A stretch of 64,000 bases of DNA from assembly GCA_965204745.1 (NCBI GenBank), contig OZ242010.1, positions 864,001 to 928,000 of the forward strand, given 5' to 3'. A program made the position numbers and the translations under genes. Under the pieces are notes generated by a model that was not told the origin of the DNA, ran no database searches, and saw only the letters and a list, made by a program, of their open reading frames with translations. Source of the stretch: Candidatus Latescibacterota bacterium (GTDB taxonomy: Bacteria > Latescibacterota > UBA2968). Every line of letters starts with the position of its first letter. The stretch's first letter is position 1. Shown here piece after piece: positions 7,103-59,287 of the stretch.

Positions 7103-7770
7103 GGGACCTACCCCCCTAACCCCCCTTCCTGCGAGGAAGGGGGGAACGGTGAGCGGTTTTGCGAAGGGAATGGCGAGAGGTTTTTTTGGTGGATCATGGC
7201 GTGATCCAGTCGCTCAAAGCCATCAAAACAGGCCTAGATGCAAACCTTCAAAAAGCCATGTGCTCCCCCTTTCCTCGTAGGCACAGGCGTAGCCTACAAT
7301 GAGCGAAGCGAATAACGGGGGCCGGGGGGATAGGTCTTGTGAGGAAGGGGGAATGGCGAGAGGTTGTGCGAGGGATTGTGTGTAAGGGTTTTTGGATTTT
7401 CATGGCGTGATCTATTCGCTCAAAGCTATCAAAACAGCCAGGGAGACAAACCTTCAAAAAGCCATGCGCTCCCCCTTTCCTTGTAGGCACAGGCGTAGCC
7501 TACAATGAGCGAAGCGAATAACGGGGGCCGGGGGGATAGGTCTATGGCGGCAGGGCATGCGAAGGACACAGCGGAGTGGGAACGATGAAGCGGCGGTAGA
7601 GCGGACGGGCACGCACACGGCGGGGCGGTGAGGAGAAGGGAACGCACGAGTGGTTGGGCGGAGAGGTGAGGCACGCACGGGTGGCGGGGTGGAGCGGTAA
7701 AGTGGCGGTAGGGCGGTGTGGGGTAATCCGCGCAATCCCCTAATCCGTTTAATCCGCGATTCAGACACGG
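7103..7770. repeat. Composite REP-like repeat cluster (GGACCTACCCCCCTAACCCCCCTTCCT..AGGAAGGGG palindromes, ~210-bp tandem duplication, AATCCG-rich unit)
   Basis: Same modules recur at 461, 10697, 45221, 57447-57770, 59420-59615, 63560. Confidence 0.85.
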
Positions 7771-45151: not shown

Positions 45152-45724
45152 GGTTCTGTTGACATTTACGAGCAAAGCAACTGGCTTGAGCGGTTTATCG
45201 AGAAAATCAAGCCCTATATCGGGACCTACCCCCCTAACCCCCCTTCCTGCGAGGAAGGGGGGAACTGTGAGCGGTTTTGCGAAGGGTATTGATGAGGGAT
45301 ATTTAATCGCTTTATGCCCTCGGTCAATGCCATCAGAGCAACCAGAGCGAGAAGCCATCAAAGGAGCTTTACTCCCCTTTCCTCGTAGGAAAGGGGCCGG
45401 GGGATAGGTCCCCCTCGCAAAACGCCATCAGAGCAACCAGAGCGAGAAGCCATCAAAGGAGCTTTACTCCCCTTTCCTCGTAGGAAAGGGGCCGGGGGAT
45501 AGGTCCCCCTCGCAAAACGCCATCAAAGCAACCAGAGCGAGAAGCCATCAAAGGGACTTTACTCCCCTTTCCTCGTAGGAAAGGGGCCGGGGGATAGGTC
45601 CCCCTCGCGCAATGCCACCAGAGCAACCAGAGCGAGAAGCCATCAAAGGAAACGCATTAAATGAGCAAGCAACGCATTTGCTAATCTGTGCGTAACGTCA
45701 AAAAAATGAAATGTCAACACAACC
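45152..45724 (+). mobile_element. MITE family A, copy 3 (complete) with 95-bp internal tandem array
   Basis: TA|GGTTCTGTTGACATTT ... AAATGTCAACACAACC|TA; unit starts at 45329, 45424, 45519, 45614. Confidence 0.85.
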
Positions 45725-56991: not shown

Positions 56992-57122
56992 CCGGCCCCT
57001 CCCCACAACGGGAAGGGGAGACGTTATTCCCCCATTCCTCGTCCTACAACGAAGCAGAGCGAGTAACGGGACTAAAAAAAATCAAAACAACTTCAGGATG
57101 ACAACGCAACAAAGGATTTGTT

Positions 57123-57437
57123 ATGACGGCAAAAGAATACTACATGGCGGGGTTGGGCAAGTTGGGGACAGGGGACTTAGATGGTGCTATCGCCGAGTTT
57201 GAGAAGGCCGTTGCAAGCGATGAGTCGTTTTACATGGCGCGTTTGGGATGGGCGCAGGCACTGGACAGGCAGGGCGAGATCGACGCTGCGATTGAACAGG
57301 TCAATCACGCCTTGGCCATCGTCCCGGACGAGGCCCTCGCGCATACGAGTCTGTCGCGGTTGTATCAGCAAAAAGGCATGATCGCAGAGGCCGAAAGGGA
57401 AATGGCGATTTCGCAACAACTCGCTCAAAATATTTGA
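57123..57437 (+). CDS. Small TPR protein
   Basis: Three TPR-like helical repeats. Confidence 0.8.
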   Translation: MTAKEYYMAGLGKLGTGDLDGAIAEFEKAVASDESFYMARLGWAQALDRQGEIDAAIEQVNHALAIVPDEALAHTSLSRLYQQKGMIAEAEREMAISQQLAQNI

Positions 57438-57446
57438 TGATCCCGC

Positions 57447-57769
57447 CACCCGTGCGGCCTCACCGCGCCACCCAACCGCCCGTGTCTGAATCGCGGATTA
57501 AACGGATTACGCAGATTACGCGGATTACCCCTCACCGCTCTACCGCCGTTTCATCGTTCCCACCCGATATGTCCTTCGCAACCCTGTCGCCATTATCCGT
57601 AGGGACAGGCCCATGTGCTTACCTATCCCCCGGCCCCTTTCCTACGGGAAAGGGGAGTAGCGTCCTTTGATGGCTTAATCAATGGCTGGTTTTAAGGGCG
57701 TTGCGCGAGGGCATAAAGCGATTAAAAATCCCTCACCCCTTCCCCTCGTAAAACCTCTCGCCATTCCCC
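57447..57769. repeat. Composite REP-like repeat cluster (reverse orientation relative to 7103-7770)
   Basis: GTGTCTGAATCGCGGATT unit and ACCTATCCCCCGGCCCCTTTCCT palindrome. Confidence 0.8.
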
Positions 57770-58154
57770 CTTGTATCTTTGGATCAAGGGTTAATTAGGT
57801 GTTGCGCCCTCGTATCGAGACAAGCCATCTTGATGCTCGGCTCGGAGAAGGCCGGTCCCCCCCTTGAAGGCAATGACCTTGTTAGGAAGAGAGGCCCCCC
57901 GACCGCCGAGTCTATGCCGAAGAGTATCTAAGTCCATCGAGGCTGCATATACAAGGTCGGTAGGCTTGGCGCGAATGGTCGGGACGCGAACCCGAGCGCA
58001 CACCAGATCCCTTACAAACCCCTCATCACAGGAGGCCCCTATGTCGAACTCTCACTCCGCTTTTGCCGGCATTGATGTCAGTGCCCACACATTGTCCGTT
58101 GCCCTGTCCAGACCTGGACAAGATGTCCTGCAAGCGACCTTTGACAATGATCCC
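57770..58154 (+). mobile_element. IS110-family element, left part only (non-coding left end + first 38 codons of recombinase)
   Basis: Starts CT|TGTAT; AGGAGG then MSNSHSAFAGIDVSAHTL...TFDNDP (GIDVS of the DEDD/RuvC domain) at 58041. Confidence 0.8.
57810..57963 (+). ncRNA. Putative IS110 bridge RNA
   Basis: 5' hairpin, then two internal loops: TCCCCCCCT/TAGGAAG and AGAGTATCT/ATACAAG; the last guide is the reverse complement of the element's own left end. Confidence 0.75.
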
Positions 58155-58261
58155 CGGGCGGATAGGTGGCGAGGAGGGGAAAATCACTTGACATCGCGAG
58201 AGGGATTGGAGATTATTTGTGTTGTTCCGCAAGTCGTTCAAACAATCTCAGGAGGTGCCCC

Positions 58262-59287
58262 ATGGCAGAATACGATACGATTCCCAAGCAGTTGATTCAC
58301 CTCTACCCGCAAGATCTCGTCCGCTTGGCTCTCGGACGCGAGGATGTCGAAATTGAAGTTGAAGAAGTCCTCGACACCGAACTCCCGATGGTTGACACGC
58401 GCCTGGTCGATAGCCTCATTCGCGTGCGGATCAATGGCGAGGAAGCCTTGGTACACATCGAATTTCAAACCACCGACAGCGCGAATATGGCTATTCGCAT
58501 GGCGATCTATATCCTCCGCCTCATCGAACGCTATGGCCTGCCGGTCTATGCCCATGTGATTTACTTGCGTCCCAATGCCGGGCGACGCGATAAAGGGTTT
58601 TACCTTCAAGATCATGCCGATTACCCAGTGCTGGTGCGCTACAAGGTGCTTCGGTTGCGTGAGCTGGACGGGCGAGGCATTCTTGAAGGTGGTCAGGCGG
58701 GCTTGCTTCCTTTCGCGCCGTTGATGAAGCGTCCTGTGGGGATGGGTTCCGAGGATTGGTTGCGCGAGTGTGTTCGCAAGAGCGATTCGGTTTCGTTGGA
58801 TCAATCAGAAAAGGCTAATTTTTTGAGTAGCTTGGGGGTCTTGAGTGGGTTGGCGTACGATCCAAGCACCATCACGAAAATTCTTTCTCAGGAGGGTTTT
58901 ATGGACGCGATTATGCGTGAGTCATCGTTTGCCCAATACCTCAAGGAACAGATCCAGGAACAGTTCAAGGAACAGTTCAAGGAACAGATCCAGGCACAGT
59001 TCAAGGAACAGTTCATTGAGCAGGGCATTGAGCAAGGAATCGAGCAGGGAATCGAGCAGGGAATCGAGCAGGGAATCGAGCAGGGAATCGAGCAAGGGGG
59101 TAGAGAACATACCATTGCCGCTATCCTCGACGTGTTGGAGGTTCGCTTCGATCCAGCCGTTGCCGGTCAGTTCGCCGGTCGCATTGCGGTTATCGACGAT
59201 TTGCAACGGCTCAAGCGGTTGCTTCGCTCGGCGGTGCAAGTGGATGATCTGGCGGCCTTTCAGCACCTGTTGGATGCGGAGGCCTGA
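58262..59287 (+). CDS. Rpn family recombination-promoting nuclease / putative transposase (PD-(D/E)xK)
   Basis: AGGAGG RBS; YDTIPK, VDSL...VHIEFQT, LLPFAPLM, EQGI repeats, LEVRF tail. Confidence 0.88.
   Translation: MAEYDTIPKQLIHLYPQDLVRLALGREDVEIEVEEVLDTELPMVDTRLVDSLIRVRINGEEALVHIEFQTTDSANMAIRMAIYILRLIERYGLPVYAHVIYLRPNAGRRDKGFYLQDHADYPVLVRYKVLRLRELDGRGILEGGQAGLLPFAPLMKRPVGMGSEDWLRECVRKSDSVSLDQSEKANFLSSLGVLSGLAYDPSTITKILSQEGFMDAIMRESSFAQYLKEQIQEQFKEQFKEQIQAQFKEQFIEQGIEQGIEQGIEQGIEQGIEQGIEQGGREHTIAAILDVLEVRFDPAVAGQFAGRIAVIDDLQRLKRLLRSAVQVDDLAAFQHLLDAEA
58945..59097 (+). repeat. Intragenic 12-bp tandem repeats (EQFK/EQIQ then EQGI)
   Basis: GAACAGTTCAAG and GAGCAGGGAATC units. Confidence 0.9.

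Follow-up and report, generated by a model that had tools for sequence, protein, structure and literature searches.

We analysed a window of 64,000 nucleotides from Candidatus Latescibacterota bacterium, positions 864001-928000 of a single 5.48-Mb contig (OZ242010.1). At 57770-58165 the window contains the left end of an IS110-group insertion sequence (IS), a truncated copy made up of a CT core, a non-coding end of ~270 nt, and 40-41 recombinase codons. We predict that the non-coding end contains the gene for a bridge RNA. The bridge-RNA mechanism was published in 2024 for IS621 (Durrant et al. 2024, PMC11208160; structure 8wt6). In that account, loop 1 of the RNA binds the target and loop 2 the donor. 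Within a loop, the bottom strand is paired by the 5′ strand and the top strand by the 3′ strand, and each loop includes the core. A first-pass annotation of this DNA had proposed that the bridge RNA is programmed against a palindromic repeat of the host genome, and the motifs it quoted are all found where it placed them. The features of the locus, and the related sites elsewhere in the window, are as follows.

57621-57769, + strand: left flank, one unit of a modular repeat resembling repetitive extragenic palindromic (REP) sequences, with the last bases ...GCCATTCCCC before the core (blastn)
57770-57771, + strand: CT core dinucleotide of the left junction, where the element starts CT-TGTAT (CT precedes TGTAT in 57/57 copies)
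57772-58040, + strand: left non-coding end, 269 nt, holding the predicted bridge-RNA gene (88-96% identity to >50 other copies)
57812-57836, + strand: predicted 5′ stem-loop, 9 bp (RNAfold, RNAalifold)
57840-57904, + strand: target-binding loop module (consensus fold and pair counts, 21 distinct sequences)
57840-57853 / 57893-57904, + strand: outer stem of the target module
57854-57866, + strand: 5′ strand of the target internal loop, with the left target guide TCCCCCCCT at 57856-57864
57867-57880, + strand: inner hairpin of the target module
57881-57892, + strand: 3′ strand of the target internal loop, with the right target guide TAGGAAG at 57883-57889
57905-57970, + strand: donor-binding loop module (consensus fold and pair counts, 21 distinct sequences)
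57905-57919 / 57958-57970, + strand: outer stem of the donor module
57920-57930, + strand: 5′ strand of the donor internal loop, with the left donor guide AGAGTATCT at 57921-57929
57931-57944, + strand: inner hairpin of the donor module
57945-57957, + strand: 3′ strand of the donor internal loop, with the right donor guide ATACAAG at 57949-57955
58041-58165, + strand: N-terminal 40-41 codons of a DEDD recombinase, including the GIDVS motif (BLASTP against the full-length family protein, P0001); the ATG at 58041 opens a frame beginning MSNSHSAFAGIDVS
58160-58176: breakpoint zone where the IS relic meets the adjoining repeat, the joint being ambiguous by a few bases (delimited against other copies of the IS and 13 further copies of the neighboring cassette)
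58177-59287, + strand: unrelated multi-copy cassette, outside the IS
7342-7365, - strand: paralogous target without an insertion, in which the 20-nt flank runs into TCCT (exact-match search)
478-502: palindrome CCCCCCTTCCT-nnn-AGGAAGGGGGG, both arms of which offer C5-CT-TCCT; other examples at 7120-7144 and 45238-45262

The window copy belongs to a large family. A blastn search of the genome with 57765-58160 returned 65 high-scoring segment pairs (HSPs), of which only the window copy itself lies within the window. The closest copy is 95.7% identical and ~50 further copies are 88-91% identical. By pattern search, 57 copies in the genome have an intact target loop, and 52 of these have a right end ~1,290 bp downstream. 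An intact recombinase frame of 335 codons is present in 51 of the 52 two-ended copies, and 34 of them encode one identical protein (P0001). Complete copies are ~1,293 bp long and consist of a CT core, a left end of ~270 nt, a 335-amino acid DEDD/Tnp recombinase, a 16-nt right end after a stop codon overlapping TTGACC, and a second CT. The CT that stands directly before TGTAT at every left end also follows AGAGTAT in all 52 right ends.

P0001 contains an N-terminal DEDD RuvC-like domain (PF01548, 1.2e-24) and a C-terminal Tnp domain (PF02371, 4.8e-20). It scores 213.8 bits against NF033542, annotated as “IS110 family RNA-guided transposase” (cutoff 140), and aligns end to end with the bridge recombinases of ISCro4 (9t56, 7.6e-40) and IS621 (8wt6, 5.8e-36). 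These three models, matched on the full-length family protein, bear out the first-pass assignment to the IS110 family. The long left end, the short right end, and an RNA upstream of the recombinase place the family in the IS110 group, not IS1111, by the criteria given in Durrant et al. 2024 (PMC11208160). In a related-locus search of genome contigs, relatives were found in two other Latescibacterota genomes and on one partial Gemmatimonadota contig that is without the upstream region.

We predicted the structure of the bridge RNA from an alignment of 21 distinct left ends: nine from this genome, five and six from two Latescibacterota metagenome-assembled genomes, and the window copy. Scaffold identity averages 88%, and almost all of the variation falls in two patches, the left and right target guides, which are the only hypervariable columns of the alignment. 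In the RNAalifold consensus there are two tandem modules, each with an inner hairpin separated from an outer stem by an internal loop. All four proposed guides are inside the two internal loops (columns 19-31/46-57 and 86-96/111-123), the target loop first and the donor loop second, as had been proposed at first pass. The 32 pairs of the cleaned structure are 98.4% paired; shifting the partners by 1-3 columns lowers this to 50.7% or less. The 5′ stem-loop at 57812-57836 is kept in the host genome and in one relative, and is not evident in the third genome.

Across the family the donor guides do not vary and are equal to its termini, and the target guides vary by sub-lineage. The left donor guide AGAGTATCT is identical to the right end AGAGTAT-CT, and reverse complementing the left end CT-TGTAT gives the right donor guide. 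The donor predicted by the first-pass annotation, AGAGTAT-CT-TGTAT, is thus identical to the real family ends (52 right ends and 57 left ends). In loop 1, the left target flank followed by CT can be read on the 5′ side, and CT followed by the right target flank appears in reverse complement on the 3′ side. Loop 2 has the same strand logic for the element's own right and left ends. This two-loop order and strand rule agree with the rule described for IS621 (PMC11208160). In the joined form, TTGACC of the right end and TATCTT of the left end would be 17-18 nt apart, as judged by eye from the computed junctions. TTGACC or TTGAAC is also found in the genomes of both relatives.

The agreement between guides and insertion sites was analyzed for 82 copies with 11 guide classes from three genomes, the second relative genome being sampled via 18 loci. 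The copies' own guides agree with their flanks at 373 of 410 positions on the left and 250 of 300 on the right, compared with 62.6% and 46.3% when the guides of other classes are used. In a class-level permutation of guides, none of 10,000 shuffles reached the observed score.

The largest class in this genome has 46 copies, 45 of them with a right end. The left guide is CCCCT-CT and the right guide predicts CT-TACCT; the left flank is CCCCT-CT in 41/45, and the right flank is CT-TACCT in 24 and CT-TGCCT in 17, the latter requiring an rU.dG wobble. These copies are in heptamer arrays, where the sites read TCCCCT-CT..CT-TACCT or TGCCT. Four other copies in this genome have guides for CGCCT-CT and CT-TACTT and are flanked by TCGCCT-CT or TCACCT-CT, and by CT-TACTT. 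One copy has guides for TCCCT-CT and CT-CACCT and its flanks are exactly the predicted site. In the first relative genome, four copies have guides for TCCTC-CT and CT-TTTCT; the match is partial on the left (2-5 of 5) and CT-TTTCT is on the right in 3/4. The 18 copies from the second relative genome have guides for TCGCCT-CT and CT-CCCT. Their left flanks read ...(C/T)(G/A)CCT-CT (3-5 of 5), and on the right the flank CT-CCCG matches three of the four positions after the core in 16/18 copies. The same CT is present at both junctions, and joining left flank, CT, and right flank rebuilds both the heptamer junction and the REP-like unit.

Occupancy of the heptamer sites falls as mismatches accumulate. 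Genome-wide, the perfect 12-mer CCCCT-CT-TACCT is filled at 20 sites and empty at five (20/25), rU.dG wobble sites are filled at 17 and empty at 65 (17/82), and two-mismatch sites are filled at four and empty at 83 (4/87). This is a natural specificity gradient, and the perfect sites are near exhaustion.

Two further arrangements were observed in the heptamer arrays. At 1121597-1124187 (- strand) there are two full copies head to tail, with only TACCT between two CT cores (…AGAGTAT-CT-TACCT-CT-TGTAT…); the pair corresponds to insertions into adjacent heptamers. A single-copy mini-element of ~190 bp at 2972658-2972849 contains a complete left end that extends through the target loop and into the donor loop as far as the right donor guide, where the last right-end bases (…ATACAAGAGTAT-CT) are joined on without a gap. 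Its right target guide is ACGGGAG, the flanks in the heptamer array are CCCCT-CT and CT-CCCTT, and it is without the closing stem of the donor loop.

The window copy is located in a different repeat. Its 20-nt left flank (57752-57771) has one other match in the window, the reverse complement of 7346-7365, where the repeat runs uninterrupted into TCCT, in agreement with the first-pass annotation. The site at 7342-7365 had been described as empty. It is an unoccupied repeat; it is a paralogous copy and not the pre-insertion allele of the window locus. C5-CT-TCCT, which had been named as the core of an abundant palindrome, is indeed present in the 11-mer CCCCCCTTCCT at 478, 7120, and 45238. The inverted arm lies 14 nt further on, and the genome has 132 + 134 matches (~133 palindromes). 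The 10-mer core CCCCCTTCCT occurs 479 times in the genome, versus ~15 expected from base composition. The repeat fits the type of REP sequences and bacterial interspersed mosaic elements (BIMEs): it is a short imperfect palindrome with high copy number and a conserved core, and it is an IS landing site.

A blastn search of the genome with the left flank (57620-57771) gave 373 HSPs, 201 of which reach the junction. In 188 of these units the site is unoccupied and reads T-C(3-7)-CT-T[CT]xT, with 4 C in 74, 5 C in 105, and 6 C in three; the inverted AGGAAG arm follows in 119 of the unoccupied units. The other 13 are three with an IS left end, two with CTTGTAT minus the IS, and eight of other kinds.

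Right guides of the AGGAAG type occur in three copies only, the window copy and those at 1,263,480 and 1,433,011. Each is truncated or has an internal deletion, and all are at ...(A/G)TTCCCC-CT of one modular REP-like repeat. Their left guides are TTCCCC-CT, CCCCC-CT, and TCCCCCC-CT, and the lengths of the C runs therefore mirror the C4/C5/C6 polymorphism of the repeat. The target loop of this sub-lineage, (T)C4-6-CT / CT-TCCT(A/G), corresponds to the conserved core of the ~200-copy REP-like repeat. As had been proposed, the target guides point to a host REP-like palindrome, and the window copy is in one unit of it. The left guide of the nearest relative fits both its own flank and the flank of the window copy perfectly. 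The 6-C guide of the window copy has three perfect sites in the genome and matches its own flank only at 4 C + CT, the proximal 6 nt, which had been pointed out at first pass. The nearest relative (1263480-1264400) is itself degraded: it contains a premature stop, an internal stretch is deleted, and the 3′ part runs out in an incomplete left end of another copy, in inverted orientation.

The REP-like repeat contains relics only: the three truncated AGGAAG-type copies, a few fragments of lesser length, and, at 5,088,582, a single solo right end, which is followed by CT-TCCT. None of the 52 two-ended copies is in a REP-like site; they are in heptamer arrays because their target guides differ. 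The first-pass annotation had expected full copies to end AGAGTAT-CT-TCCT within the palindrome. AGAGTAT-CT is present in 52/52, the flanks of full copies are the heptamer arrays, and CT-TCCT follows only the solo right end. Full copies inserted outside the repeat had been regarded as evidence against its proposal. Such copies are what we found, and the covariation of guides with flanks explains them; the RNA-guided reading is therefore strengthened.

There are further observations on the REP-like units and on the IS termini. At least 16 units, among the matches listed, read T-C4/5-CT-TGTAT-CT-TCCT... (e.g., 2981522 on the - strand, 234964, 415939, and 1079907). They have a 7-nt insert, the first five IS nucleotides plus CT, exactly at the predicted core. 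The insert could be a deletion between GTATCT of both IS ends, or an aberrant excision. Most of these units have their upstream sequence in common, which gives the impression that a single scar was duplicated together with the repeat. The unit hit by the IS (57621-57700, many genome sites) also contains a second palindrome, CCCCGGCCCCTTTCCT-nnnn-GGAAAGGGGAG. One IS copy in a related genome is in a similar CCCCGGCCCCTCC-CT-TTTCT context, and relatives may target this second palindrome, judging from the flanking sequence.

The left terminus with its core, CT-TGTATCT, occurs 261 times in the genome, versus ~27 expected by chance, and at 200 of these sites no IS sequence follows. At 127 non-IS sites it heads a conserved module, CT-TGTATCTT (…ATCTTYGGGCGAGCAC…, a hairpin; e.g., 747869, 1404321, and 2112897). 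The module is often found after a heptamer array ending CCCCT-CT and resembles a solo left junction. Outside the IS, the right-end motif AGAGTATCT occurs just six times in the genome. The non-IS CT-TGTATCT sites could be half-sites for “half-match” recombination by the donor loop, or the IS terminus could share its origin with a host miniature inverted-repeat transposable element (MITE).

The window copy itself is incomplete. Homology to other copies ends at ~58160-58165, and the match to the nearest copy at the DNA level extends to 58164; the rest of the recombinase gene and the right end are absent, and a complete recombinase is not encoded. The first-pass annotation was correct that the recombinase is cut and the right end missing; it had placed the cut at 58154, after 38 codons, and homology continues to 40-41 codons. 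A Pfam search with the 84-amino acid open frame of the window copy gave no match, the fragment being too short. In the target module, an A.C mismatch at 57846 breaks one pair of the outer stem. The predicted TTGACC -35 box is lost with the right end, and a promoter scan found no promoter-like site upstream of the window RNA. The window copy cannot move on its own, and from its sequence it is most likely not transcribed from its native promoter. It looks dead, because the right end with its predicted -35 box is missing, a stem pair is broken, and the left guide mismatches its own flank.

To the right of the IS relic, the sequence shared by cassette copies begins at 58177 (13 other copies compared). 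The cassette (58177-59287) gives 209 HSPs in the genome, including >10 near-full copies of 79-89% identity. It has a promoter-like site at 58188-58216, a conserved TTGACA-N17-GATTAT, and an open reading frame at 58262-59287 that encodes a 341-amino acid protein with an EQGI-repeat region. The protein has no Pfam match, and there is only a sub-threshold hint of an Rpn-family nuclease/transposase (TIGR01784, E 0.0034, below the cutoff). The cassette often adjoins heptamer arrays and IS copies.

Contigs of four public DNA runs, which are short and broken at repeats, were compared with 57300-58700. One contig of 101 nt spans the left junction without differences. One loose end continues CT-TCCT... 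after 57770, and may represent a paralogous empty unit rather than an empty allele. Among the public runs listed for this stretch, none is an RNA run.

We conclude that 57770-58165 is very probably a dead, truncated copy from an IS110-group family that is mobilized by bridge-RNA-guided recombination. If the family behaves like IS621, the right end and the left end would be joined in the excised circle, and the circle junction would rebuild a promoter (TTGACC, a spacer of 17-18 nt, and TATCTT) that drives the bridge RNA. Together with the RNA, the recombinase would then bring target and donor into pairing around CT, and the circle would be inserted. The window copy belongs to a small sub-lineage whose target loop corresponds to the core of the REP-like repeat, and it is located in one repeat unit. 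A later rearrangement very probably removed everything beyond codon ~41 and joined the copy to the multi-copy gene cassette.

Several results weigh against this conclusion. Of the 32 stem pairs, 20 are invariant and only two show compensatory change, in an alignment of closely related sequences; the covariation is thin because the relatives are close and were found in just two other Latescibacterota genomes. The single-sequence fold of 57770-58041 is no more stable than shuffled sequences (z = -0.79), and inside its loops there are extra pairs between guide halves that are absent from the consensus fold. A search of 57000-59000 against Rfam 15 (E <= 10) gave no family match, just a chance snoRNA match (E 5.4), and it is not established that Rfam 15 includes a bridge-RNA model. 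For the window copy no right target flank is available for comparison, the right end being gone, and none of the contigs listed from the four public runs bridges the right joint at 58160-58176. Among the other copies, the one at genome position 602861 is in a site that better fits the guides of another class. Four copies of the main class are in two-mismatch sites, and two have CT-CCCGT on the right.

The relic could also be a functional orphan guide, its RNA transcribed (e.g., by read-through) and used in trans by the recombinases of the 51 intact copies, which would be redirected into the REP-like repeat. Its donor guides do not differ from those of the main family and fit the ends AGAGTAT-CT / CT-TGTAT, the scaffold is ~90% identical to that of the main copies, and a bridge RNA supplied in trans is reported to work for IS621 (PMC11208160); the 188 unoccupied REP-like units would be available as targets. 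However, there is no sign that AGGAAG-type guides are now used in trans, because no full element is in a REP-like site (0/52), though the donor loop would fit. The truncation of all three AGGAAG-type copies, the broken outer-stem pair, the loss of the predicted junction promoter's -35 box with no promoter-like site upstream, and a left guide with just three perfect genome sites also speak against the idea, which looks unlikely. We give still less weight to an assembly artefact, in which the copy is complete in the organism and repeats were falsely joined at 58160-58176. Multi-copy repeats are present on both sides of that joint, and the listed contigs leave it unbridged. On the other side, the genome is a single 5.48-Mb contig, the 101-nt contig bridges the left junction with no differences, and decay is common in this family: many other copies are truncated or internally deleted, and the nearest relative (96% identical) is independently degraded.

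It is very improbable that site choice is driven by the protein or by DNA structure and that the matches between loops and flanks are coincidental. All of the targets are C/T-rich, so unrelated guides match at ~46-63% of positions, and for ISPpu10 a target stem-loop is described as adding specificity (bioRxiv 10.64898/2026.03.19.712850). The class-level permutation (0/10,000), one-base covariations between guides and sites (TACCT/TACTT/CACCT and CCCCT/CGCCT/TCCCT), and the gradient of occupancy with mismatch number all argue instead for guidance by the RNA. The dead IS110-group copy, from a family that moves by bridge-RNA-guided recombination, is the reading we retain.

The value of the locus is in the surrounding dataset, 57 copies with several guide classes and matching sites in one genome. 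The occupancy gradient (perfect > wobble > mismatched) is an in vivo specificity profile of a bridge recombinase from an uncultured phylum. From the sequences, the family may offer a compact, highly active orthologue, with 34 identical proteins among 51 intact copies and guide rules that are readable from the genome. A more far-reaching idea, to which we assign a low probability, is that the IS110 lineage radiated by rewriting a few target-loop bases and that relics acting in trans as “retargeting” guides could open ~190 fresh REP-like sites. If true, orphan bridge RNAs kept in the genome as a library would add a new layer to the dynamics between transposon and host. In a literature search on bridge RNA, orphan guides, and IS110, none of the papers listed, by title and abstract, concerned stand-alone bridge-RNA genes. 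The ssr9 gene of ISPpu9 was considered as a precedent for an orphan guide and rejected, since Ssr9 is described as not required for transposition (PMC12288879).

Among known systems, IS621 as described by Durrant et al. (PMC11208160) has the same two recombinase domains, an RNA in the long left end, and a very short right end. It also shares the two internal loops, target then donor, with 5′ strands that read as the top strand and 3′ strands as its complement, and a CT core in both. A -35 box in the right end and a -10 box in the left end, as in IS621, are predicted here, and the natural target is a REP-type palindrome. The family here differs in that its protein is only distantly similar to that of IS621 (E 5.8e-36, full length), its host is an uncultured Latescibacterota bacterium, and it is split within one genome into guide classes aimed at heptamer arrays versus the REP-like repeat; the window copy is also a truncated relic. 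The best match to the family recombinase among solved structures is ISCro4 (9t56, 7.6e-40, residues 7-326). The GIDVS, CxEAT, KTDAxDA, and C-terminal SK.G..LR.ALYMPA motifs are conserved in the alignment, a comparison of the protein alone.

ISPpu9 and ISPpu10 of Pseudomonas putida are IS110-family elements described as inserting at one specific place in REP/BIME palindromes, which are present in hundreds of copies (PMC12288879; bioRxiv 10.64898/2026.03.19.712850). Their host and sequences are different, and in our genome the REP-targeting lineage survives as relics only. The IS1111/seekRNA elements have the same recombinase family and, according to the published account, the same RNA-guided principle (PMC11208160). 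Their RNA is in a long right end and they have long subterminal inverted repeats, whereas our family has a left end of ~270 nt and a right end of 16 nt. The two-loop bridge RNA, guide-target covariation, and the targeting of REP sequences by IS110 elements (IS621, ISPpu9, and ISPpu10), known for a long time, are already in the published accounts. The family is a further natural example of a known mechanism, in an uncultured phylum, and the window feature itself is an ordinary relic. Less standard are the within-genome radiation of guide classes onto different host repeats and the near-exhaustion of perfect sites.

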